A stretch of DNA of 64,000 nt from Alphaproteobacteria bacterium. GTDB lineage: Bacteria; Pseudomonadota; Alphaproteobacteria; UBA828. The position numbers and the translations under genes were made by a program. The stretch is from assembly GCA_965237415.1 (NCBI GenBank), contig CBDEFM010000001.1:448001-512000 (forward strand), in the 5' to 3' direction. Under the pieces are notes generated by a model. That model was not told where the DNA came from and did not search any database. It saw only the letters and a program-made list of their open reading frames with translations. Positions 3,315 through 46,703 of this stretch are shown one piece after another; within the stretch, counting starts at the first letter, position 1; every line of letters starts with the position of its first letter.

Positions 3315-5551
3315 CGGGCGGCTTGAGGGCTGTGATCGCTCGAATCCTTGAGCCCTCGCGCCCCAGGAACCCGGAAACCACCTCGCCGCCGCCGGTTATG
3401 ATTCAGACAGATAGGATCGCGCCCTAGAACCGCGCGATGGCCCGCAGCATGGTCCTGTGGTCGGCCGGCGCTGCGGGGCGCTCGCGGCGTTCGGTCTCGA
3501 GGCTCAGAAGCGCGGACGATCCCAGCGAGAACCGCATGCCCAAGCGGTAAGCGCGCGCATCGGAGTTTTCCAGACTCACCGCGCCGTAGGGCGCCAACGC
3601 GGCGCGGCCGCCGAACGCCGGGAAGCCGTAGCCGACCTCCAAATCCAGACGCCTCTCCGACGAGTCATGCACGGCCAGGCGGTTCGTGCCGTCGCTCCAT
3701 AACCGATGCACGCTGCTTGTCGGCTCGCCCCAGGTTTGTGCCAGGCTCACCCATGGGCCGAAGCCAGGCGCCTCTGGATGGTAACGGAACCGCAGGCCGA
3801 ACCCCTGCTCCTGCGCCAGCGCGTCGTCGCGCGCGGCAAGCCAGCGACCATAGATCTCCGCGTTCCACCCCTGCTCGATGTTCCGGTAGTGCAGGCCGCC
3901 ACCGAGTTCCAGGCTGGAGCCGGTCGCGCCATCGCCACCCTCGTGGCGCAGGCCCAACTCCCCCCAGGGGGCGAGCACGCCGACGTCGGGAATGACGTGC
4001 TCGTATTCAACCTCGGCCGCAAGCCGCAGTCGCTGCAGGTTCGCCGATGCACCCTGGAACAACCCTGTGCCTTTTGAAACGTCCAGCTGCGCCAGTGACC
4101 CCTCGCCCTTGAGCCTGAGCGTCGTCGCGCCATGAGTCAGCAGCCGGCCGTTGATGCCCACTGTGGCCGAGGCCAAGGTTGCCGCACTCGTGGCGGAAGA
4201 ACCCGCGGCGTCGTCAACAACCTGGAGCTCCCCGCCGGCAAGACCGAAAGTTCCCCAGATTTCCAGGTCGGGCGATACCCACCAGCCCAGATAGGGGTGA
4301 ATCCCGGTCAGCCCCAGATCATAGCGGCCGCCGGCGGGACCGCTCCCGCCCGGCCCGTCGAAGTCGAGCGAGCCTCGCGATTGGGTCAGAGACACCCCCG
4401 CAAGCAAGTTGCGGTCGACGATCGCGTCGGCGCCCACCTGCATGCTGAACGCTTCGCCGTCCCAGGCGCCTGCGTCACCCCCACCGTCGCCAGCCAAACT
4501 GCGGTAGTCGCCGCAGCCCCACGTCGAGAATTGGATCGTGCCGCCGTTCCCGCCCATCAGCGGAAGCAGAAACGACGTGTTGGCGAGTATGTCCTCCAAC
4601 GCCAGCGACTCGCCATCCCCATCGGCCAACCCGCTGGGGATCGGTACGACAGACAGTGACGGGCTGACGGCGGGCCTTGCCCAACCGCGGGCCATGTCCG
4701 AGAACGCCTGCTCGATCCGGCAGCGGACGGCGGTGAATGCCAGCGCTCGCCCGATCTCGGGAAGGAGCTCCTGGTTGATCGGCGCGAGGGGCCTTATGTC
4801 ATCGTCGGCGATCGTCCCCGTAGCGGTGCCATCCTGTATCGTCGCGCCGCTCGGGTTGCTCAGCGCCACCAGGAATGTCTCGTCCGGCTCGTCGAGGTCG
4901 TCCTCGCGCGTCGGCACCGCGATGCTCTGACGTGTGTTGCCGGGCGTGAAGGTGAGCGTGCCCGATGCGCCGTCGAAGTCGCGGCCCGCGACTGCCGTTC
5001 CGCTGGCTGTCCGGTACCTGACCGTCACGGTCTGCTCGCTGGCCGGGCTTAGCCTTACCGTGAATTGCGCCGTCCCTCCCTCGACCACCGTCGTATCAAC
5101 AATGGAAAGCTTGGGCTGCGGCACAGACTCGTCGTACTCGATGATCGTGCCCGTCCCACTCCCGTCCTGCAGGGTCGCGCCGGTCGGATTGCTCAGCTCC
5201 GCCGTAAACGTTTCGTTCGGGTCGTCGACGTCGTCCTCGTGCGTCCATACGAGGATGGTTTGCTCTGTGTCGCCGGGCACGAAGGTGAGCGTGCGCGACA
5301 CCCCGCGGTAGTCTGTGCCCTCGTCCGCCGTCCCGTCCTTTGTCCGGTACCGCACCGTCACGGTCTGATCGCTTGCAGGGCTTAGCGTCACCACGAAGCG
5401 CGCGGTATCTCCCTCTTCCACCGTCGTGTCATCGATGGAAATCTTCGGGAGGCCGGGGTCCCCAACATCGCGCAGCTCATCCTCGTCCTCGCCCCCGTTG
5501 TTGAGGTCGGTCCCGTCGTCAATGTTGGTATTGTGGTTGTTGCCGCCGGTA

Positions 5552-38229: not shown

Positions 38230-38360
38230 GTGGTCGCGCGGGCCTGAAAGGTCCCGCGCGCGGAGAAGAGTCGCGCACGCCTGAAAGGTCGTGGGCGCGG
38301 TACAAAATCGCGCGGACGATGACCGTAGCGAAAAATTCGAGCCAGCCGGGCCGGCCGGCC

Positions 38361-39956
38361 CTAACGATTGAGGATCAGGTCCGACCCCTTCTCGCCGATC
38401 ATGATAGTGGGCGCGTTGGTGTTGGAGCTGGTCACGATCGGCATGATCGAGGCGTCGATCACGCGGAGCCCGTCGATGCCACGGACCCAGAGCTCCGGGT
38501 CGACGACCGCCATGTCGTCGATCCCCATCGTGCAGGTGCTGGTGGGATGATAGGCCGGCAGCGTGTATTGCCGGATATAGGCTTCGAGCGCCTCGTCGCT
38601 CCGGTCCCCGGGCGCAGGCAGGTAAAGCTCCTTGAAGTGCGGCTTGAAGGCCTTGCTCTCGAAGATCGCACGCGAAATCTTGCAGCCGTCGATCATCCGC
38701 CGCATGTCGTCCTCGTCGCCCAAGAGGTTCGAGAAGATGCGCGGCGGCTCGTTGGGATCGGCTGAGCGGAGCGTGAGCCTGCTGCGGCTCTTCGGGCGGC
38801 AGACATTGACCGGCAGAGTGACGCCGGGGCGCTCAAGCAGCTTGATTCCGTCCGGGCCGAACTCGTAGCCAGTCGGCACGAAGTGGATCTGGATGTCGGG
38901 GCGGTCCTCCTCCTCCGGCCGGGTGCGGACGAAGGCCACCTGCTGGGCGATGGGGCTCGCCGCCGGCCCCTTGCCGCGCAGCAACCAGTCGAGGCCGTGC
39001 CGCACGTAGCCCGACGGCGTGACCTCGGTGTTATAGGTGCTGATGTCGACATAGCCGGCCACCCAGGCGGCCGGATGCTCCTGCAAGTTGTTGCCGACAC
39101 CCGGCGAGTCCGCGACCACGGGGATGCCGAGCTGGGAGAGATCGTCCGCCGGCCCTATCCCTGAGCGCAGCAGGATCGCCGGCGATGCGATGGCGCCGGC
39201 GGAGAGGACGATCTCGCCGTCCGCCCTTGCCTCGTGTTTCACGCCGGCCCGGCTGTAGACGACGGCGCGCGCGCGCCCCTCCTCGAACAGCACCTTGTCC
39301 ACCCGCGCCTCGGTCTCGACATCGAGGTTTCTCCGCCCCATCACCGGCCTGAGGTAGGCGCGGGCCGTGCTGTTGCGGCGGCCGAAGCGAACCGTCCCCT
39401 GGTTGGGGCCGGCGCCCTCCTGGCGCTCGCCGTTCACGTCCGGATTGAAGGGGATGCCGAGCTCCTTTGCCGCTTCGACGAAGACGCGGCCCAGCGGATG
39501 CGGCGTCGGCACGTCGGAGACGCGGAGCGGCCCGTCGGCACCGTGATACTCGCTCGGGCCCAGGGGATTGCTCTCCATGCGCTTGAAGTAGGGCAGCACG
39601 TCGCGATAGCTCCACGCGCCGGTGTTGCCGATGAGGCGGGCCCAGCCGTCATAGTCCTCATGCTGACCGCGCAAATAGATCATGCCGTTGATGGAGCTCG
39701 ACCCGCCGAGCACCTTGCCGCCCGGCCACATGGCGTCGCGCCCGTTGAGCGAGGGGTCGGGCTCGCTCATGTACATCCAGTTGAAGCGGGGGTTCAGGAT
39801 CGCTTTGATCTCGCCGGCGGGGACCCGCAGCACCGGCGAGGTGTCGAAGCCGCCGCCTTCGAGCAGCAGGACCTTGTTCGTGCGCTCGGCGGAAAGCCGA
39901 TGCGCGAGCACGCACCCGGCCGACCCTGCGCCCACGATGATGTAGTCCCACGCCAT
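38361..39956 (-). CDS. GMC oxidoreductase (choline dehydrogenase-like)
   Basis: [49 protein letters not shown]. Confidence 0.93.
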
Positions 39957-40179
39957 CCTTCCCTCCGCGCGCCGGGCATGATTCGCGCGGCTAGTGTCGC
40001 AAGCCAAGGGTGGATGGGCAAAGTCATTGAATTGCGGCGAGGCGCCTTTCGCGGTTGCCATCCGCGTAGTCGACATGGCCGGACATAGTCTGCGGAAATG
40101 AGTAACGAAAGCATGGCGAATCAGCCTAGCCCCACACCTCCTCTTCGCCGTAGCCCCTGAAGTCTTCCAATTCAAAACA

Positions 40180-41493
40180 TTAGATCGGAACCTCAGGCAG
40201 GGGTTCAAGTTGAGTCTCCGACAACAGATGAAGGCCTATTACACGACGCTTGGTCTGTTCATTGCCCGCGGAACTTAGTTTGCGAGCCTCAGTTTGAAGA
40301 GCATTTATGCGACGGTCTATTTCTACATCCAACTGCTCGAACACGTGCATTGCTGTGGTGTGACGAAACGACTGAGACCAACTCCATACGATACTATGCA
40401 ACTCAACCATAGACTGATGGTATCGCCGTCGGTGCGACGATGACATGCCTTCGGCAGCCGCCTTCATCTCCCGCTTGGCGTCTTTCACCACCATGTCGAG
40501 TTTCGTCAAGAATTTTTTTCTGGCGGCCCTAGATGGCTCTAAGGAACGGCCAGAAATGCGATATCCCAAGAAATCCGTTCCGTTATGGATATTTCCATCG
40601 TCGACCTTGCCATCATTGCGAGCTTTGACGTCACGCAAGTCGTACACTTCCATATCCATGGCTTTGAGAATCGCACGAGCCGATCGGTAGGCGGACATGA
40701 CTTTGGCTTTGGACGGTCCCAAGAGAATAAAGTCGTCGATATACCGAATACAACTTATTCCTCGTTCATTCATTCTTGCATCAAAGCTGTGCAAGGCAAT
40801 GTTGCCAGCTAGTGCGGACAACGCTGAACCTTGTGCCACTCCGATATCAGGGTCAGGGAACAATTTGAATAGGTTGCGCTCCTCCAACTCCTCTCGGTTT
40901 TCGAGGTTAGTAGTCAGTGCCTCTTCAAAAAAATCGGAAAACTCCGGATCATTTACCGCAGTACCAACAAACGCGTTGACATCAGCTCTTGCAATTCTTG
41001 TGAAGAAATCCCTGATGTCTGACCGAATGAACCAATACTTGCCCGACTGTACCGCTTGATCCACCAAGGCTATGCCCTCTGGTACGCCACGACCGGCAAT
41101 CCCGCCAACGCTAGTCGGCGTCTCCATGATGCTTCGAATAGCTGGTATACCCCGCCACTGACGGTGCCTTTCAGTCGCCGGTCCTCCACAGCCTTGAAGG
41201 ACATCGAGAATAGCGCGCCGAACTATACGGTTCTCAATGGGCGCCAAGACCAACGGACGGACCCCTTTCTTGCCTTTCCCCTTAGGTGGAGCGATGCCGG
41301 TCTCGCCGGAAAACGTGAATCTATGATTCTTCAGCCGACGTTGCAGCCGCTCGAGATTATTCAGAAAGTTGTCGTCGAATTGAATGATGAGGCGTTTAGT
41401 TTTCTCGCTATCGGACTTAAGGCCACTAGTCTTGACCTTACCCCAAGCTGGATACAGCACGCCTCGGTATCGAATTTGGGCGTAGAGACCCAC
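40180..41493 (-). CDS. stand-alone reverse transcriptase, UG2/DRT2-like
   Basis: RPL...P.ENRIVRRAI, SDIRDFF, GVAQGSALS, CIRYIDDF, FLGY; 437 aa with no endonuclease/RNase H domain; GTG start with GAGG RBS; visibly lower GC than flanks. The RT call is firm; the subfamily is from recalled similarity. Confidence 0.9.
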   Translation of the reverse strand: MGLYAQIRYRGVLYPAWGKVKTSGLKSDSEKTKRLIIQFDDNFLNNLERLQRRLKNHRFTFSGETGIAPPKGKGKKGVRPLVLAPIENRIVRRAILDVLQGCGGPATERHRQWRGIPAIRSIMETPTSVGGIAGRGVPEGIALVDQAVQSGKYWFIRSDIRDFFTRIARADVNAFVGTAVNDPEFSDFFEEALTTNLENREELEERNLFKLFPDPDIGVAQGSALSALAGNIALHSFDARMNERGISCIRYIDDFILLGPSKAKVMSAYRSARAILKAMDMEVYDLRDVKARNDGKVDDGNIHNGTDFLGYRISGRSLEPSRAARKKFLTKLDMVVKDAKREMKAAAEGMSSSHRRRYHQSMVELHSIVWSWSQSFRHTTAMHVFEQLDVEIDRRINALQTEARKLSSAGNEQTKRRVIGLHLLSETQLEPLPEVPI

Positions 41494-41555
41494 GGCAACC
41501 TCGTACTACTTTGGGGGCCCTATCGGCAAACCCGCCCCCGACAGAATCGCGAGGT

Positions 41556-41692
41556 TCGATCCCCAGGGCTCCGAAGGCGCTCAAGGCAGCCTGCGGGTGC
41601 GACCTGCTCCGCAGAAGCATCCGCCCTGCGGTCCCCGCTCCCAGCATAGCCGACGCTCAAGACAAGCCCGACCGCGAGAAGCGGGAGGATCA
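41556..41692 (-). repeat. 137-bp direct repeat, copy proximal to the RT
   Basis: Base-for-base identical to 41923-42059. Confidence 0.98.
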
Positions 41693-41922
41693 GGCCCGAG
41701 ACGGAAAATCCGCCGGACCTGCGCGCCGGCAACTTGGCGCGTTTTTGAGAGCGCGGGTCATCTGGCAATCCTCCTGCTGGGCGACCGTATCGTTTTTGGG
41801 TCGTTCATCAAGTGGCGCCAGCGCGCCTCCGCGCCCACGGAAATATAGAAGTTGTCGACCGTCCGATAGGCCCCCATCACGGTTAGGGCTCCGGTGACGT
41901 AGACTTCCGCCGGGCGCGAAGG

Positions 41923-42059
41923 TCGATCCCCAGGGCTCCGAAGGCGCTCAAGGCAGCCTGCGGGTGCGACCTGCTCCGCAGAAGCATCCGCCCTGCGGTC
42001 CCCGCTCCCAGCATAGCCGACGCTCAAGACAAGCCCGACCGCGAGAAGCGGGAGGATCA
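41923..42059 (-). repeat. 137-bp direct repeat, copy at the predicted transcription start
   Basis: Base-for-base identical to 41556-41692; starts 367 bp apart. Confidence 0.98.
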
Positions 42060-42067
42060 ACGCAATG

Positions 42068-42096
42068 ACTATACATCATGTCGCCCTCAACCGCAA
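42068..42096 (-). promoter_or_regulatory. sigma70-like promoter for the ncRNA-RT unit
   Basis: Minus strand TTGCGG (42096-42091), 17 bp, TATAGT (42073-42068); predicted +1 at about 42061-42060, adjoining the repeat start. Confidence 0.7.
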
Positions 42097-42214
42097 GATA
42101 GGGTAAGGTACGGTATATATTGGGACCGAATTTGGGCGATAATTTGCTGTGCGACCGGACTATGGCGCGCGTCTACAGCCGCCACCCCCGGCCGTTACCT
42201 TTTCGGGATAGTGC

Positions 42215-44662
42215 TCAGCCCCTGACGCGCTCGGATCGGGGGTCGTAGAGGGGGCGGAGGCTGGCCTTCGTGGGGTAGCGGATGCCTGCGACCTCGATCT
42301 CGTAGCGGCCGGCGGCCACGTAGTCGTCGTCCACACCCGCCGCGTTCTCCACATAGCCGAGGCCGACCGCGCCGCCGAGGGTGTGGCCGTACATGCCTGA
42401 GCGCACATAGCCCGCGATCGCATCGTCCCGCCAGATCGGCTCGTTGTGGTAGAGCAGCGGCTCGGGGTCTTCGAGGAGGAACTGCACGAGCCGCTGGCGC
42501 ACGCCTTCCTCCCGCTGGCGCAGCAGCGCATGGCGTCCGATGAAGGGCTCGGGCTTGTCGAGCTTGACGGCGAAGCCGAGGCCGGCCTCCAGAGGCGTGT
42601 CCGCATCGGTGATGTCGTGGCCGTAGTGGCGGTAGGCCCTCTCGATCCTGAGCGAGTTCATGGCGTGCATGCCGACATGGCGGAGCCCCACGTCCTCCCC
42701 GGCGTCGACCAGCGCGTCGTAGATGCCCGCCGCGAACTCGGTCGGGATGTAGAGCTCCCATCCAAGCTCGCCCACGTAGGTGATGCGCGACGCGCGGGCG
42801 CAGGCGTAGCCAAGCTCGATCTCCCGGCTGCTGCCGAAGGGAAAGGCCTCGTTACCGAGATCGTCCGGGCTCAGAGATTGCAACAGGTCGCGCGCAAGGG
42901 GGCCCATGACGCCGAGCACGGCGAGGCCCGAGGTCACATCGGTGAGTACCGCGTGCGCGCCTTCCGGGATGTGGCGCTTGAGCCAGAGGGAATCCCGCAC
43001 CTGGAACTCGCCGGAGGTCACGATCAGATAATCGTCGTCTGCGAGCCTGGTGACGGTGAGATCGGCCTCGATGCCGCCCGCATCGTTGAGCCACTGGGTG
43101 TAGACGATGCGGCCGGGCGGCACGTCCACCTCGTTGGCGGAGACCCGGCCCAGCACCCGCGCGGCGTCGCGGCCCTGGAGGCGGAACTTGGCGAAGGAGG
43201 TCTGGTCGAGAAGGCCCACCCCGTCACGCACCGCCCGGTGCTCCTCCGCCGAACAGGCAAACCAGTTCTGGCGGCCGAAGCTGTACTCGTAGCAGGGCTC
43301 CATGCCTTGCGCCGCGTACCAGTTCGGCCGCTCCCAGCCGAAGGCCTCGCCGTGGCACGCGCCGCGCGCCGCAAGGCGATCGTGAAACGGCGAGCGGCGC
43401 ACCCCCCGCGCGGTCGCGTATTGGCGGAAGGGCCAATGGTTGTCGTAGAGCAGGCCGAGGGTCTCGCTCACCCGCTCGCGCAGATACCGCCGGTTGGTCT
43501 GGAAGGGCAGGTTGCGGCGTATATCCACGTCCCACATGTCGACGAGCGGCCGTCCGGTCTTGATGCATTCGGCCAGCACCCGGCCTGCGCCGCCGGCCGA
43601 CTGGATGCCGATGGAGTTGAACCCGGCGGCGACGTAGCAGCCGGCGAGCCCGGGCGCCTCGCCGAGATGATAGCGGTCGTCGGGCGTGAAGCTCTCGGGC
43701 CCGCAGAAGAAGGTCTGGATGCCGGCGTCGGCCAGCGCCGGCATGCGCTTCAGCGCGTGCATCAGCACCGGCTCGAAGTGCTCGTAGTCGTTGGGCAGCT
43801 GGTCGAAGCAGAAATCCTCGGGGATTCCGTCCATGCCCCAGGGCTTGGCCTCCGGCTCGAAGGCGCCGAGCAGGATCTTGCCCGCGTCCTCCTTGTAATA
43901 GGCGCAGCCGTCGTAGTCGCGCAGCACGGGCAGGTCCGGCGTCACGCCCTCGAAGGGGTCCGTCATCACGTAAAAGTGCTCGCAGGCGTGGAGCGGCACG
44001 TGGACGCCGATCGTGGCCGCAAGCTCGCGCGTCCACATGCCGGCTGACAGCACCACAGTCTCCGCCGCGATGGTGCCCTCCGAAGTCTCGACGCCGGTGA
44101 CCCGCTCGCCGTCATGGGCAATGGCGGTGACGGGGACCCCCTCGCGGATCAGTGCGCCGCCGGCCCGCGCGCCCATGGCGAGCGCCCGGGTCACGTCGAT
44201 GGGGTTGGCCTGGCCGTCGGAGGGGATGAAGATCCCGCCCACCACGTCGTCGACGGCGACCAGCGGGTAGCGATCCTTGATCTCGTCCGGGCCGAGCACG
44301 TCGACACGGAGATCGAATACCTTGGCCATGGAGGCGCTGCGCTTCAGCTCCTCGAAGCGGCCCGGCGTGGTGGCGAGGGATATCGAGCCGTTCTGCTTGA
44401 ATCCGGTCGCCTGGCCCGTCTCCGCTTCGAGGCCCGTGTAGAGCTCGGCCGTGTACTTGGCGAGCTCAGTCATCCGCTTCGAGGGGCGGAGCTGGCCGAT
44501 AAGGCCCGCGGCGTGCCAGGTGGTGCCGCAGGTGAGCTCGCGGCGCTCCAGCAGCACCACGTCGGAAACACGCGCGCGAGCTAGGTGGTAGGCAACGGAA
44601 CAACCCACCACCCCGCCGCCGACGATGACGACCCGTGCCGAGCGCGGCAGGTCCTGAGCCAT
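42215..44662 (-). CDS. GcvT-family FAD-dependent oxidoreductase (sarcosine/dimethylglycine dehydrogenase-like)
   Basis: GGGVVGCS, LTCGTTWHAAG, GPESFTPD, GWERPNW, SLRIE. Confidence 0.93.
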   Translation of the reverse strand: MAQDLPRSARVVIVGGGVVGCSVAYHLARARVSDVVLLERRELTCGTTWHAAGLIGQLRPSKRMTELAKYTAELYTGLEAETGQATGFKQNGSISLATTPGRFEELKRSASMAKVFDLRVDVLGPDEIKDRYPLVAVDDVVGGIFIPSDGQANPIDVTRALAMGARAGGALIREGVPVTAIAHDGERVTGVETSEGTIAAETVVLSAGMWTRELAATIGVHVPLHACEHFYVMTDPFEGVTPDLPVLRDYDGCAYYKEDAGKILLGAFEPEAKPWGMDGIPEDFCFDQLPNDYEHFEPVLMHALKRMPALADAGIQTFFCGPESFTPDDRYHLGEAPGLAGCYVAAGFNSIGIQSAGGAGRVLAECIKTGRPLVDMWDVDIRRNLPFQTNRRYLRERVSETLGLLYDNHWPFRQYATARGVRRSPFHDRLAARGACHGEAFGWERPNWYAAQGMEPCYEYSFGRQNWFACSAEEHRAVRDGVGLLDQTSFAKFRLQGRDAARVLGRVSANEVDVPPGRIVYTQWLNDAGGIEADLTVTRLADDDYLIVTSGEFQVRDSLWLKRHIPEGAHAVLTDVTSGLAVLGVMGPLARDLLQSLSPDDLGNEAFPFGSSREIELGYACARASRITYVGELGWELYIPTEFAAGIYDALVDAGEDVGLRHVGMHAMNSLRIERAYRHYGHDITDADTPLEAGLGFAVKLDKPEPFIGRHALLRQREEGVRQRLVQFLLEDPEPLLYHNEPIWRDDAIAGYVRSGMYGHTLGGAVGLGYVENAAGVDDDYVAAGRYEIEVAGIRYPTKASLRPLYDPRSERVRG

Positions 44663-45333
44663 CAGGAGCTCCCCGCCGCGTGTGCCGGCGCGAGTTGCCT
44701 GATCTCGCTGAGCGCCGATTCGAGGTCGCGCACCTCGGCCCAGCCGACCCGCATCATCTCGATCGCGGGCTCGTGCAGGTGCGGCAGCGTCGTCCCCGTG
44801 CACTCCTCGATCACGATGGGCTTGAAGTCGCGGAACATCGCGTCCTTCGAGGTCGCCGCGACGCATTGATTGGTGAGCACGCCTGTCATCAGCACCGTCT
44901 CCGCGCGCAAGCCCCGGAGGACCACCTCAAGATCGGTGCCGTAGAAGGCGCTGAGCCGCGTCTTCGCGACATACCAGTCGTCCGGTTGGGGGCTGAGGTC
45001 CGCCAGCACCTCCCAGCCCCAGGTCTCGCGCCTGAGGCCGCCCTCTGCAAGAAAGGGCCGGAGCTGCATGAACGGCCCGCCGTCCTCGACACCCCTGATG
45101 CCGTGGCGGGTCCAGACGATGGGGATTCCCTTCGTTCGCGCAGCCGCAAGCAGAGCCTTCAGCGGCTCGATGCAGCGCTGCATGTGGCCGATGTCGATGC
45201 CCTGCGCCGCATACCAGCCGTCTGGATGGAGAAAGTCGTTCTGCGCGTCGATTACGACGAGCGCCGTGCCCCCCGGCACCAGGTCCCAGTGCGCCGCCTC
45301 GAAGGGGGCGGCCTGCCTCTCTTCTCCCGTCAT
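44662..45333 (-). CDS. isochorismatase-family cysteine hydrolase
   Basis: VIDAQNDF, K.R.SAF.GT.L, G..TN.CV. Confidence 0.9.
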   Translation of the reverse strand: MTGEERQAAPFEAAHWDLVPGGTALVVIDAQNDFLHPDGWYAAQGIDIGHMQRCIEPLKALLAAARTKGIPIVWTRHGIRGVEDGGPFMQLRPFLAEGGLRRETWGWEVLADLSPQPDDWYVAKTRLSAFYGTDLEVVLRGLRAETVLMTGVLTNQCVAATSKDAMFRDFKPIVIEECTGTTLPHLHEPAIEMMRVGWAEVRDLESALSEIRQLAPAHAAGSS

Positions 45334-45470
45334 CGCGTGCCTTTCCGCCGCCTCTGCGCCGTCCGCTGCTGGGAGCGTATCACCCGGCTACGCAAAGTTT
45401 GAGAGCGCCCCCGACTCGTGACAGCGGCTTCACGTGTCAGTGCCCGCGAAATGGCGTATTCCCGGTCTCC

Positions 45471-46703
45471 ATGAGCGGAGGCAGAAGCGGCACAGGCGCA
45501 GGCAGCGGCGCGGGGCGGGAACCCGCGGCGCGCGTCTTCATGGCCTTTCTCCTGCTGGGGCTCACCTCGTTCGGCGGGCCGGTGGCGCACATCGGCTATT
45601 TTCGCGAGGCCTTCGTCACGCGCCGGCGCTGGATCGAGGACCGCGCCTATGCGGACCTCGTCGCGCTTTGCCAGATGCTGCCGGGGCCGACCTCCAGCCA
45701 GGTGGGCATCGGCATCGGGCTCGCGAAGGCGGGGCTTCCCGGCGCCGCAGCAGCGTGGGTGGGCTTCACGCTGCCTTCGGCGGCGCTCATGGTGGCCTTC
45801 GGTTACGGCGTCGTGGCCTATGAGGAGGCGATCCCCGCAGGCGCCCTGCAGGGGTTGAAGGTCGTCGCCGCGGCGGTGGTGGCGCAGGCGGTGTGGGGCA
45901 TGGCGCGGACGCTCTGCCCCGACGCACCGCGCGCGACGGTGGCCGTGCTCGCCGCCATCGCCGCCGTGCTGGCGCCCTCCGTCGTGACCCATGTCGCGAT
46001 CATCGCCGCAGGCGCGCTGGCCGGCCTGCTCTTCCTGCGCCCGGCCGAGAGCGCCCATGACGCCTCCCTCGGGATCGCGGTGGACAGGCGGCTCGCCGTG
46101 CTGCTGCTCGCTCTCTTCCTCGCGCTGCTCGTCGCGCTCCCGATCTTGGCCGCCGCCTGGCCGGCGGAGGCGCTGAGCCTGGTGGACGGCTTCTATCGCT
46201 CCGCGTCCCTGGTCTTCGGCGGCGGTCACGTCGTGCTACCGCTGTTGCAGGCGGAGGTGGTGCCGCCCGGTTGGGTCGCGAACGAGACCTTCATCGCAGG
46301 CTACGGTGCCGCGCAGGCGGTGCCGGGGCCGCTCTTCACCTTCGCCGCCTACCTCGGTGCAGTGGCGGGCATCGGGCCGGGCGGCGTGCTGGGCGGCCTG
46401 CTCTGCCTGGCCGCAGTCTTCGCGCCCTCGTTCCTCCTGGTGGTGGGCGCGCTTCCCTTCTGGGAGCGGCTGCGGCGCATTGCGCTGGCCGACCGTGCGA
46501 TGCTGGGCGTTAACGCGGCGGTCGTGGGTCTGCTCGGCGCCGCCTTCTACGACCCGATCTGGATTAGCGGCATCCGCACGCCACCAGACCTCGCGCTCGG
46601 GCTCGCGGCATTCGTGCTGCTCGCCTTCTGGAAGGTGCCGCCCTGGGCCGTGGTGATTCTGGGCGCGCTCGCGGGCTGGGGGATCGGTGCGCTCCAAGGC
46701 TGA
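45471..46703 (+). CDS. chrA: chromate efflux transporter
   Basis: SFGGPVAHIGYF, CQMLPGPTSSQ, FGGGHVVLP, QAVPGPLF. Confidence 0.93.
   Translation: MSGGRSGTGAGSGAGREPAARVFMAFLLLGLTSFGGPVAHIGYFREAFVTRRRWIEDRAYADLVALCQMLPGPTSSQVGIGIGLAKAGLPGAAAAWVGFTLPSAALMVAFGYGVVAYEEAIPAGALQGLKVVAAAVVAQAVWGMARTLCPDAPRATVAVLAAIAAVLAPSVVTHVAIIAAGALAGLLFLRPAESAHDASLGIAVDRRLAVLLLALFLALLVALPILAAAWPAEALSLVDGFYRSASLVFGGGHVVLPLLQAEVVPPGWVANETFIAGYGAAQAVPGPLFTFAAYLGAVAGIGPGGVLGGLLCLAAVFAPSFLLVVGALPFWERLRRIALADRAMLGVNAAVVGLLGAAFYDPIWISGIRTPPDLALGLAAFVLLAFWKVPPWAVVILGALAGWGIGALQG

Follow-up and report, generated by a model that had tools for sequence, protein, structure and literature searches.

Long direct repeats upstream of a G2L4-type reverse transcriptase gene form a conserved RNA domain and appear to carry a circularly permuted reading frame

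Background

Group II intron-like 4 (G2L4) reverse transcriptases (RTs) are recognised by an active site with YIDD in place of YADD (bioRxiv 10.1101/2022.03.14.484287). In the parts of that preprint drawn on here, Park et al. described, in front of ~70% of G2L4 open reading frames (ORFs), among them that of Pseudomonas aeruginosa AZPAE12409, a pair of long direct repeats (LDRs) of ~140 bp that enclose a spacer of ~240 bp, and reported RNA depth on the RT strand to be 20-fold higher over the LDRs. The Pseudomonas enzyme has a reported role in double-strand-break repair by microhomology-mediated end joining, and sources that include the same preprint report this DNA-repair role without need for a template RNA. 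The account of the LDRs given in those parts of the preprint contains no covariation, concerted evolution, solo-LDR loci or permuted frame, and its supplement may hold more; the terms "LDR" and "direct repeat" occur zero times in the later G2L4 papers PMC11761039 and PMC13728195. The LDRs have been in print since 2022 without an assigned function. By comparing about 75 loci, we turn these unexplained repeats into defined, testable hypotheses. New here are the four-way-junction fold of the LDR with its covariation, the homogenisation of the copies within each locus, the solo-LDR loci, the greater contig depth of the leader than of the RT gene, and the permuted ORF.

Results

The locus and its reverse transcriptase

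The window (the whole 64,000-nt stretch of DNA analysed) comes from an alphaproteobacterium-like genome of 4.75 Mb and holds a strain-specific islet on the minus strand. The closest relative (G004) aligns to window positions 38347-40000 and 42240-46000, with a different 1,029-bp sequence between them. The islet is horizontally acquired; G+C content is ~50% in the RT part versus 65-70% in the genome, and the leader had no match in the 60 relatives searched. Next to it lie a GMC oxidoreductase gene and one resembling dimethylglycine dehydrogenase, and no recombinase gene adjoins the islet. The features of the locus are:

40001..42239, minus strand: strain-specific islet with promoter, leader and RT gene, the whole system (from comparison with the closest relative)
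40180..41493, minus strand: G2L4-type RT gene, 437 aa, GTG start, RYIDDF active site; RVT_1 in Pfam
41513..41539, minus strand: hairpin GGGGGC-N15-GCCCCC between LDR2 and the RT start, helix 6 of the clade alignment
41556..41692, minus strand: LDR2, the inner long direct repeat, on the 3' side and with the same sequence as LDR1; covariance model 133.1 bits
41693..41922, minus strand: spacer, 230 nt, predicted to be weakly structured, with conserved sequence in related loci; putative C-terminal codons in its 5' part, in the LDR1 frame, and putative basic and hydrophobic N-terminal codons in its 3' part, in the LDR2 frame
41923..42059, minus strand: LDR1, the outer long direct repeat, on the 5' side; a folded RNA domain placed at the 5' end of the RNA or close to it; covariance model 131.8 bits
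42068..42096, minus strand: promoter-like element, TTGCGG and TATAGT with 17 nt between them, its end 8 nt upstream of LDR1; 8/12 consensus positions

In a phmmer search against the PDB, the RT matched two solved G2L4 RT chains over its full length, 9d5x_A (E 1.9e-65, with residues 3-428 of the query aligned to residues 4-410 of the chain) and 9d4s_A (E about 2e-65), and after the G2L4 chains its next-best match was Cas6-RT-Cas1 (4e-12). The enzyme has YIDD and not YADD, and residues Y251, I252, D253 and D254 are invariant among 32 homologues. The group II RT/maturase model scored 109.6 bits against a cut-off of 300, the gene is free-standing, and an Rfam scan of positions 39800-42400, group II intron RNA domains included, gave no match at E up to 1. 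Upstream lie repeats of 137-145 nt with a 230-nt spacer, LDR2 ending 62 nt before the RT start. We conclude that the locus is almost certainly a G2L4 RT islet and that the two 137-nt copies are its LDRs, a feature already published as such in the parts of the preprint used here (bioRxiv 10.1101/2022.03.14.484287).

Shared with Pseudomonas are the position of the repeat pair within 1 kb upstream of a free-standing YIDD RT, an islet of low GC content acquired horizontally, seemingly more RT-strand RNA over the repeats than over the RT gene, and the presence of the pair in ~70% of loci. The host differs, being alphaproteobacterium-like, and the RT is ~35-40% identical to the solved Pseudomonas protein, as estimated from the printed alignment. 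The preliminary description of this DNA, made from its letters alone, had overlooked the earlier publication of the LDRs. A host gene interrupted or duplicated by RT insertion was also considered and rejected, the leader being absent from the 60 relatives and conserved with the RT in other genera.

Two copies kept alike within each locus

Positions 41548-41692 and 41915-42059 align over 145 nt at 99% identity, start to start 367 nt apart, and the 137-nt core is 100% identical (0 differences). Repeat alignment and genome search thus bore out the two identical 137-nt copies, at 41556-41692 and 41923-42059, that the preliminary description had reported, and neither of the two objections it had foreseen applies. 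The repeat is not dispersed through the genome but tied to the RT locus, with only these two matches in 4.75 Mb and none in the 60 relatives. Nor is it an assembly artefact, as the layout recurs in independent genomes and the 137-nt unitig has a depth of 68.6 in the DNA-like run X1, where the flank has 35.8 and the spacer 34.4, exactly as for two LDRs and one spacer.

When RT homologue loci were searched for copy number, two copies were found in 15/15 close loci with enough upstream sequence, in 38/55 more distant genome loci and in 27/48 metagenome loci. In 53 genome loci and 27 metagenome loci the pair keeps a constant distance to the RT. The idea, also raised beforehand, that the outer copy begins a repeat-spacer array fell away, with more than two clean copies in 0/38 distant genome pairs and 0/27 metagenome pairs; arrays of three or more LDRs were found in none of the assemblies, where L045 has a third partial copy abutting a run of N and L082 is masked. 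Searching genome contigs with one sequence had returned no relative, and an alignment-based scan succeeded. The 52-locus ORF tests described below exclude, from the 80 genome loci, nine with less than 620 nt upstream as well as L045, L046, L055, L082 and L090. The 80 metagenome loci include six partial RT matches, which are untabulated, and 26 loci with less than 620 nt upstream; merging four duplicates among the 27 metagenome pairs left 23 hold-out loci.

Within a locus, 30/68 ungapped pairs are perfect and the median identity is 99.3%, compared with 66-82% for LDRs of different loci. This shows that the two copies are held near-identical inside each locus while the loci diverge, that is, concerted evolution with ongoing homogenisation. 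The mismatches that do occur fall on all bases (29 A, 37 C, 33 G and 21 T, counted by the LDR2 base). Solo-LDR loci without any spacer exist in several clades: of the 16 loci that lack a pair, at least 11 (10 by blastn, L063 by model) have an RT of intact length together with a single LDR and no spacer. Recombination between LDRs has repeatedly yielded such loci and, since these keep an intact-length RT, the enzyme is maintained there without the split gene proposed below.

A conserved RNA domain

On the RT strand each LDR forms a conserved RNA domain built around a four-way junction. The fold is essentially the one sketched in the preliminary description, in which a closing stem encloses one long hairpin and two more hairpins, and both the clade alignment and the model alignment show covariation across homologous loci for a domain that folds by itself on this strand. 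In the close clade, 95.7% of cells are paired versus 39-51% with partners slid, and 13 pairs have changed on both sides, with 0/500 shuffles as high. Among 72 model-aligned LDRs, 45/50 pairs have changed on both sides and 90.8% are paired versus 42-49%. The strand is indicated by invariant G-U pairs and by covariance-model hits, 72/72 of which lie on the RT strand. A single LDR sequence folds no better than its shuffles (z -0.49), whichever the strand, and RNAalifold recovered only 8 pairs from a plain MAFFT alignment of 52 divergent LDRs, so that the clade alignment and the covariance model were needed. The hairpin between LDR2 and the RT start (helix 6) has two pairs changed from G-C to A-U on both sides, in 6/15 and 3/15 sequences. 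No self-cleaving ribozyme (hammerhead, hairpin, twister) or other Rfam family was found at E up to 1 in 39800-42400, and ARAGORN made no tRNA-like call.

Promoter and leader RNA

The promoter-like element consists of TTGCGG (42096-42091) and TATAGT (42073-42068) on the minus strand. The earlier placement of the outer repeat at the predicted transcription start stands in part: 14 related leaders share the TTG...TA element at the same position and the RNA contigs lack the flank, but the match to consensus is 8/12 and a promoter and terminator scan with a threshold of 9/12 returned no site.

Three metatranscriptome runs (X3, X16 and X17) from two studies cover the leader. Leader contig depth was 16-39 in X3, against 3-7 for the RT, and 30.4 in X16, against 3.3 for the RT; in X17 the leader contig had a depth of 7.7 and nothing else was covered, the uncovered parts carrying no meaning. 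The leader contigs close into 397-nt cycles (367 + 30) from which flank sequence is absent. These data fit a discrete RNA made of LDR1, spacer and LDR2 that is more abundant than RT RNA, as far as contigs, which show neither levels nor strand nor ends, can indicate. The joint at which contigs go back by 367 nt and the 397-nt cycles prove nothing about RNA shape, since a linear LDR1-spacer-LDR2 RNA gives them equally.

A circularly permuted reading frame

Comparison of reading frames across the loci shows that the leader carries what is probably one small gene in circularly permuted order. In the window its two predicted pieces are:

41758..42060, minus strand: ORF A, 100 codons, LDR1 plus 55 spacer codons, with no conserved start codon (from the ORF list and locus comparison)
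41520..41768, minus strand: ORF B, 82 codons, TTG start in this copy; basic SQKRAKLPARR, hydrophobic helix, LDR2, and a stop soon after

The putative gene would begin with a basic N-terminus and a hydrophobic helix in the 3' part of the spacer and pass through LDR2 as its middle, and its C-terminal ~50 codons would lie in the 5' part of the spacer, after LDR1. This frame relation is kept in 70/75 loci; the Pseudomonas locus L076, whose copies have diverged (88%), is a poor match to the ORF pattern. In 46/52 loci one frame is open, compared with 23/52 on the other strand and 183/1040 shuffles. A hydrophobic 17-aa window of at least 1.6 occurs in that frame in 38/46 loci and in each of the five other frames in 0-1/46, and T makes up 0.37 of second codon positions in the frame of the permuted ORF. 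With the frame fixed by the helix, at least 45 codons after LDR1 are open in 47/52 loci, against 11/52 and 7/52 for the other two frames; in the hold-out metagenome loci the same test gave 23/23 versus 6 and 1. ORF B stops at most 9 nt from the LDR2 end in 30/46 loci and has an MQKRA-type start in 24/46, the ORF B of the window being without ATG at the MQKRA position. Ten loci have a frame that runs without stop through the entire LDR1-spacer-LDR2. The conserved frame across repeat and spacer had escaped the preliminary description.

The predicted ORF is whole only where the 367-nt unit is copied head to tail. Two database proteins (P0122 and P0123, 125 aa) have exactly this intact order of N-terminus, LDR and C-terminus. 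Their source is one or more contigs of 1,172 nt, whose two units differ, with 83% and 96% identity to the window, and they could be the product of an assembler walking round a cycle in a mixed population. For a second clade, no intact form was present among 10 hits.

The protein-level signal of the permuted ORF is weak. Column entropies at the three codon positions are 0.50/0.62/0.67 in the LDR and 0.76/0.61/0.81 in the C-terminal part, with 0.76/0.61/1.53 in the RT, and the synonymous share is 0.38-0.41 versus 0.76 in the RT. AlphaFold, run on the LDR plus C-terminal peptide with 43 sequences, predicted no secondary structure and no fold (pLDDT 53.7, pTM 0.22). ORF A matched nothing in Pfam or NCBIfam, where ORF B had only a sub-threshold TadE-like match (E 0.002, 18.7 bits versus a cut-off of 22.3).

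Discussion

We tentatively suggest that the RT switches template between the LDRs on its own leader RNA and that the resulting multimers assemble an intact gene for a membrane-anchored protein. The leader RNA would be the template of its own RT, and a cDNA reaching the 5' end of this RNA would anneal to the downstream LDR and be extended further. Such re-annealing would be possible because the RNA begins with an LDR and repeats the same LDR 367 nt downstream. The product would be head-to-tail copies of the 367-nt unit, and only these would encode, in one piece, a protein of ~125 aa composed of N-terminus, LDR and C-terminus. Occasional recombination of the copies, or of the repeats themselves, with the chromosome may keep LDR1 equal to LDR2. 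The attraction of this proposal is a reading frame that is sensible only when 367-nt units follow one another head to tail. Counting against it, loci without a pair retain the RT with one LDR and no spacer, and no cDNA, concatemer or circle was observed, the spacer depth of 34.4 in X1 not exceeding the flank depth of 35.8. The weak protein-level signal, the window's ORF B without ATG, the lack of an intact form in the second clade and the published repair role, for which no template RNA is required, also speak against it.

It may be, instead, that the leader is regulatory only, a reading that we also regard as possible without being inclined to rely on it. The structured LDR would bind or regulate the RT or its mRNA, no cDNA of the leader would be made, and gene conversion would keep the copies alike. 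The strong covariation of the RNA structure and the nucleotide constraint at all codon positions are what such a leader would lead one to expect, as are the retention of the RT in solo-LDR loci (10/16 loci without a pair by blastn, plus L063 by model) and the lack of any AlphaFold fold for the LDR plus C-terminal part. In the parts of the preprint by Park et al. used here, LDR co-expression "modulated" survival while the RT protein level was unchanged (bioRxiv 10.1101/2022.03.14.484287), which points the same way. ORF B would then perhaps be an ordinary small membrane-protein gene, with LDR1 and the C-terminal codons as a conserved extra copy, such as a second RT-binding site or a decoy; we hold this part of the reading no more firmly. 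The preliminary description had proposed the inner copy as a putative RT-binding scaffold 3' of the template. A purely regulatory leader, however, leaves unexplained why ~50 codons after LDR1 are open in the frame set by the helix in 70/75 loci with no conserved start, and why ORF B stops right at the repeat end. If the RT makes no head-to-tail copies, the permuted frame still wants explanation.

A circular RNA is a less probable source of the intact ORF. A host enzyme or a ribozyme would cut both LDRs at the equivalent position, and the unit would be ligated to a 367-nt circle, which, improbable as we judge it, might be translated or serve the RT for rolling-circle copying. The layout does exceed one unit in length and has a folded domain as its repeat, the contigs close on the 367-nt unit with little RNA continuing into the RT gene, and the ten loci with a frame open through LDR1-spacer-LDR2 would suit a circle; but a linear RNA also yields cycle contigs, the Rfam scan (E up to 1) gave neither a ribozyme nor any other family, and ARAGORN made no tRNA-like call. 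Circularisation would moreover explain neither the near-identity of the two DNA copies nor the start of the outer repeat beside a promoter.

We consider it quite improbable that the unit is switched at the DNA level, with LDR1-LDR2 recombination excising or amplifying 367 bp, arrays or circles carrying the intact gene, and the RT acting as a bystander or annealing helper. Spacer-less solo-LDR loci in several clades and the within-locus identity are as expected from frequent recombination, and a real array could be the source of P0122 and P0123. G2L4 RT was also reported, in the parts of the preprint at hand, to promote annealing of short homologies (Park et al., bioRxiv 10.1101/2022.03.14.484287). 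Yet three clean copies occur in no assembled locus (the third copy in L045 abuts a run of N), the X1 depth matches two LDRs and one spacer, and no recombinase gene lies beside the system here. It is extremely improbable that the pair arose by chance or as a by-product of structure, be it an assembly artefact, the target-site duplication or att sites of a mobile element, or the repeat pair of a diversity-generating retroelement (DGR): although the islet is horizontally acquired and the series repeat, ~230 nt, repeat, RT has a superficial likeness to the VR, TR, RT order of a DGR, the two-copy layout recurs at a fixed RT distance in 53 genome and 27 metagenome loci, the repeats flank the spacer only and not the element, X1 depth supports two copies, the copy differences are not adenine-specific, and no target gene lies upstream of the outer copy.

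Comparison with known systems

A DGR shares with this locus two direct repeats of ~130 nt beside an RT related to group II intron RTs. The DGR RT motif is IGxxxSQ, whereas the RT here has QGSALSAL, and we reject a DGR given 0 differences in 137 nt, mismatches at all four bases across loci, no upstream target or accessory gene, and a promoter-like element preceding the outer copy. A retron, in which inverted repeats flank the msr-msd, is likewise rejected, the retron St85 model scoring 35 bits against a cut-off of 235 and the repeats being direct, not inverted.

Viroid-like RNAs and retrozymes use templates of more than unit length for small circular RNAs. The unit plus partial second unit found here, with a folded repeat at both ends, would similarly permit excision and circularisation; the differences are that no Rfam ribozyme was found and that the circle signal consists of assembly cycles only. 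In retroviral RNA, terminal R repeats allow strand transfer, and a repeat that starts at the RNA 5' end and recurs downstream would in the same way let a finished cDNA re-anneal. The analogy is one of mechanism only, both LDRs being upstream of the RT gene rather than flanking it, and LTRs, integrase and mobility were not seen.

[quoted passage not shown] The present locus is not of this type, as the UG17 model matches part of the RT with E 6e-29 versus 2e-65 for the full-length G2L4 match, and the neighbouring genes are oxidoreductase- and dehydrogenase-like.

DRT2 (UG2), the subject of work by Tang et al. in 2024, reportedly pairs an RT with an ncRNA from which the neo gene is assembled in head-to-tail copies. 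There, as here, a single RT gene is preceded by a structured RNA and the frame would be complete only in head-to-tail copies, and ten of our loci resemble it further in having a stop-free frame through the unit. The RT family differs: the NF041746 Drt2 model scores 49.3 bits on our RT versus a cut-off of 390, and the PADLOC Drt2 model (E 6e-12) is far weaker than the generic RT model. The unit here is ~350-370 nt, of which the genome holds 1.37 with the 137-nt repeat, and most of our loci have a stop and their own start in each unit. Should the proposed template switching be true, a gene absent from the genome would be written by an RT family now seen as a domesticated DNA-repair polymerase, and the reported G2L4 repair phenotype would need re-reading. 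G2L4 would then be a second case of RT-driven gene assembly besides DRT2 and Neo, and an evolutionarily separate one.

The repeat pair and its reverse transcriptase

Two identical copies of a 137-nt sequence, as claimed in the preliminary description, are indeed present in the window at 41556-41692 and 41923-42059 (100% identity), with no match beyond these two across the whole 4.75-Mb assembly. They form the core of a 145-nt direct repeat (41548-41692 and 41915-42059 in plus-strand coordinates, 99% identity) with a start-to-start distance of 367 nt. In X1, a DNA-like run that is probably the sample from which the assembly came, the assembly graph breaks precisely at the repeat borders. The 137-nt repeat unitig has a depth of 68.6, the flank 35.8 and the spacer 34.4, as fits two repeat copies and one spacer. 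The repeat pair is thus genuine rather than a product of assembly. The locus is composed as follows:

40001-42239: strain-specific islet with a promoter-like element, the leader and the reverse transcriptase (RT) gene
41923-42059, minus strand: LDR1, the outer (5') long direct repeat
41693-41922: spacer
41556-41692, minus strand: LDR2, the inner (3') copy
41758-42060, minus strand: ORF A, LDR1 plus 55 spacer codons
41520-41768, minus strand: ORF B, 3' part of the spacer plus LDR2
40180-41493, minus strand: RT ORF, 437 codons, reverse-transcriptase domain
Neighbouring genes of the system: GMC oxidoreductase and a dimethylglycine-dehydrogenase-like gene

Against solved structures, the RT gives a full-length match to the 'group II intron-like 4 reverse transcriptase' (G2L4) 9d5x_A (E 1.9e-65; runner-up 4e-12). 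Its active site is YIDD, it stays below threshold for the group II intron maturase, Drt2, Drt3a and retron models, and its PADLOC matches are generic. The feature in the window is the already known LDR pair of G2L4 RTs.

Conservation, homogenisation and collapse of the LDRs

Using an alignment of 32 RT homologues, we collected 80 genome and 80 metagenome loci. All 15 close loci with sufficient upstream sequence carry an LDR pair, as do, where at least 620 nt upstream were available, 38 of 55 more distant genome loci and 27 of 48 metagenome loci. The repeat period is 334-376 nt across loci (exceptions being L076 with 425 nt and L090 with 772 nt), and ~55-100 nt separate the end of LDR2 from the RT start. 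Copies from the same locus are nearly alike, with 30 of 68 ungapped pairs perfect and a median identity of 99.3%. Between loci they diverge: the leader of the window is only 66-77% identical to the other close-clade leaders over their full length (67-82% for the repeat alone), and mean column identity among 52 LDRs is 42%.

Ten of the 16 genome loci lacking a pair have a single LDR-like match by blastn at the LDR2 position, none has a blastn match to the spacer, and a further single LDR was found by a covariance model in L063. These are collapsed solo-LDR loci, in which RT matches are still full length. Three clean copies were seen in none of the genome and metagenome loci examined; a third partial copy in L045 adjoins a run of N.

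Several loci deviate from this pattern. In a Vicinamibacterales MAG (L090:1998-2897) the 772-nt separation of the LDRs, usually ~350 nt, suggests a ~420-nt insertion in the spacer. In eight soil-metagenome loci (L123-L130) the RT match starts only at query residue 98, and the six with enough upstream sequence have no repeat pair upstream of the RT; they may form a subgroup that is truncated at the 5' end or starts differently. In Pseudomonas fluorescens HK44 (L076:2373-2923), the sole Pseudomonas locus of the set, the copies are 88% identical and no clear hydrophobic N-terminal frame is seen, a poor fit to the ORF pattern; both the homogenisation and the split frame may be in decay at this locus.

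The LDR as a structured RNA

The self-contained fold proposed in the preliminary description proved essentially right. RNAalifold, applied to 15 close sequences, gave a closing stem, a long bipartite hairpin and two more hairpins in the LDR, as well as an independent hairpin in the stretch from LDR2 to the RT start. Over this structure, 95.7% of cells are paired vs 39-51% with slid partners, 13 pairs are altered on both sides vs 3-7 in slid controls, and none of 500 shuffles matched this covariation. Several G-U pairs are invariant, at which the other strand would have A-C mismatches. In 572 kb, a covariance model built from this fold gave 72 matches at E <=1, every one of them on the RT strand and distant and solo copies among them; the acidobacterial and Nitrospira-type clades were not reached. 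In the alignment of these matches, which was itself fitted to the LDR structure, 45 of 50 pairs are altered on both sides and 90.8% of cells are paired vs 42-49% in slid controls. Predicted structure in the spacer is weak, and no Rfam family, tRNA-like gene or intrinsic terminator was detected at the locus.

A permuted reading frame

One frame of the LDR on the RT strand is open from LDR1 for ~46-63 codons into the spacer (unbroken all the way to LDR2 in 10 loci), and the same frame is open into LDR2 from at least 20 codons upstream, and in 30 of 46 loci its stop lies no more than 9 nt from the end of LDR2. All frame criteria together hold in 46 of 52 loci; the corresponding counts are 23 of 52 for the opposite strand and 183 of 1040 for composition-preserving shuffles. 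Upstream of LDR2 the codons specify a basic stretch followed by a hydrophobic helix; a 17-residue hydropathy window of at least 1.6 occurs in 38 of 46 loci in this frame vs 0-1 of 46 in each of the five others. Second codon positions there are rich in T (0.37) and poor in A (0.07), and all three segments show an excess of G at first positions. Of 46 loci, 33 have an in-frame ATG and 24 an M[QK]K[RHDG]A start; the window copy has TCT at the position of the relatives' ATG, so that an upstream TTG at 41768 would be needed.

In the key test, the frame was picked solely by the helix upstream of LDR2 and then examined downstream of LDR1. It remained open over 45 codons or more in 47 of 52 loci vs 11 and 7 for the other two frames, and in 23 of 23 distinct, previously unused metagenome loci vs 6 and 1. 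Since the frame is shared and no conserved start precedes LDR1, the N-terminus, LDR and C-terminal part behave as one ~125-codon gene. In the genome these parts are arranged as LDR, C-terminus, N-terminus, LDR, and only a head-to-tail copy of the 367-nt unit, or a circle of it, contains the gene unbroken.

Evolution of the leader is unlike that of an ordinary gene. At the three codon positions, column entropy is 0.50/0.62/0.67 in the LDR and 0.76/0.61/0.81 in the C-terminal part, vs 0.76/0.61/1.53 in the RTs of the same loci, and of the codon differences at a single base a share of 0.38-0.41 is synonymous in the proposed frame, compared with 0.17-0.33 in other frames and 0.76 in the RT. Constraint falls on all codon positions, as expected of an RNA both folded and read. 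The protein-level signal alone is modest, and AlphaFold gave no confident fold for the LDR and C-terminal part (pLDDT 53.7).

The spacer (41693-41922) also carries near-invariant motifs in leader alignments A2 and A8: TTGAC, 9 nt and CAAAAAGGnTA, promoter-like with a poor -10. Further 3', a GGAG box stands 8 nt before ATGACC, followed by ATGCAAAAACGTGCC. A different short frame starts from this well-spaced GGAG-ATG, has 23 codons in the window and ends at the LDR2 border; the MQKRA start is without good Shine-Dalgarno spacing.

The leader in RNA libraries and protein databases

Contigs of the leader were found in three metatranscriptome runs from two studies, at depths above that of the RT; as contigs, they give no ends, strand or levels. 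Depths were 30.4 for the leader, 3.3 for the RT sequence and 4.6 for the upstream gene in X16, 16-39 for the leader and 3-7 for the RT in X3, and 7.7 for the leader in X17, where no other part was covered. The leader contig of both X16 and X17 measures 397 nt (367 + 30, the closed-cycle length at k = 31), and in X17 it is listed with a joint that 'goes back 367'. Because the repeats are identical, a linear LDR1-spacer-LDR2 RNA also yields such a cycle, which is therefore no evidence for a circle or concatemer. In these libraries little or no sequence links the repeats to their outer flanks, a pattern compatible with a discrete RNA whose ends lie near the outer borders of the repeats, and with the published 20-fold excess.

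When ORF A of the window was searched against a database, two 125-aa proteins matched, P0122 at 96% identity and P0123 at 83%; in both, N-terminus, LDR and C-terminus follow one another uninterrupted. Each is recorded on one 1,172-nt contig, which could hold ~3 units; this may be either a real array or concatemer, or an assembler walking round the cycle in a mixed population. As their C-terminal parts differ, a walk or an old array is favoured over fresh cDNA. A search with sphingomonad-type ORF A gave 10 proteins, with the intact order in none of the eight sequences examined; the other two (65 and 68 aa) were too short.

A strain-specific islet

G+C content is ~50% in the RT gene and ~65% in the repeat region, the genome being at 65-70%. 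In the closest relative, G004, the oxidoreductase orthologue is 96% identical, and the alignment of G004 to the window runs up to 40000 and resumes at 42240, with a differing 1,029-bp sequence between. Together with the absence of the 721-nt leader from the 60 relatives searched, this marks 40001-42239 as a strain-specific islet.

The G004 insert at the equivalent site (L029:4235-5263) has two small ORFs on the opposite strand, one of 109 aa (4379-4708) and the next with a helix-turn-helix-like sequence, and looks like a toxin-antitoxin pair. In two other relatives (G009 and G005) the dimethylglycine-dehydrogenase-like gene is also missing here, and this place looks like a hot spot for small islets. 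X1 depth climbs from ~35 to ~210 immediately outside the islet (42239-42300), and contigs with loose ends at 42239/42240 run on into G004-type sequence; islet-free cells seem several-fold commoner in that sample than RT-islet cells. A minus-strand 12-mer, CGCCCAAATTCG, lies ~70 nt upstream of the outer repeat (42127-42138) and recurs at 41473-41484 in RT codons 5-8. The motif ATGTGGGG is found at the matching upstream place in several Bradyrhizobium-type leaders (A2, an alignment of 14 related leaders, columns 1-30).

Possible mechanisms and comparison with known G2L4 systems

We take it as shown that this is the LDR leader of a G2L4 RT, that the LDR RNA folds, that leader contigs are deeper than those of the RT in RNA libraries, that the two copies are homogenised, that pairs have collapsed to a solo LDR and that the reading frame is permuted. 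What we tentatively favour is that the RT copies its own leader RNA: as this RNA would start with an LDR, the end of the completed cDNA could anneal to the downstream LDR and synthesis go on, giving multimers that would encode the small membrane-anchored protein intact. Such copying would explain why the outer repeat adjoins the promoter, why the ORF B stop coincides with the repeat end and how the two copies keep their identity. Evidence of several kinds speaks against it: no cDNA was seen, X1 has the same depth over the spacer as over the flank, the RT is kept in solo-LDR loci, and the published G2L4 repair function requires no such template.

A purely regulatory or RT-binding leader beside an ordinary upstream small gene is about as probable; the covarying fold and the solo-LDR loci speak for it, the frame kept open after LDR1 against it. 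A circular RNA, in which the ~125-codon gene would also be intact and for which the 367-nt cycle is no evidence, is unlikely, and so is a DNA recombination switch, with the collapsed loci in its favour and the X1 depth, which fits two LDRs and one spacer, against it. An artefact, att sites or a diversity-generating (DGR) system is highly improbable, given the X1 depths and LDR1/LDR2 mismatches that hit all four bases rather than adenine as in DGR-type mutagenesis.

Among literature on long direct repeats with group II intron-type RTs, the only relevant work found was a preprint (Park et al. 2022, bioRxiv 10.1101/2022.03.14.484287); nothing was found combining group II intron-like RTs, direct repeats and concatemers, and 'LDR' and 'direct repeat' have no occurrences in the later G2L4 papers PMC11761039 and PMC13728195. 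The preprint describes two ~140-bp LDRs with a ~240-bp spacer ahead of about 70% of G2L4 ORFs; in it, RT-strand RNA depth is 20-fold higher over the LDRs, LDR co-expression 'modulated' survival after DNA damage, the LDR/G2L4 element is suggested to be mobile, and the LDRs are described without a function. The interest of the present locus lies in this unsolved LDR function, together with the new testable regularities described here.
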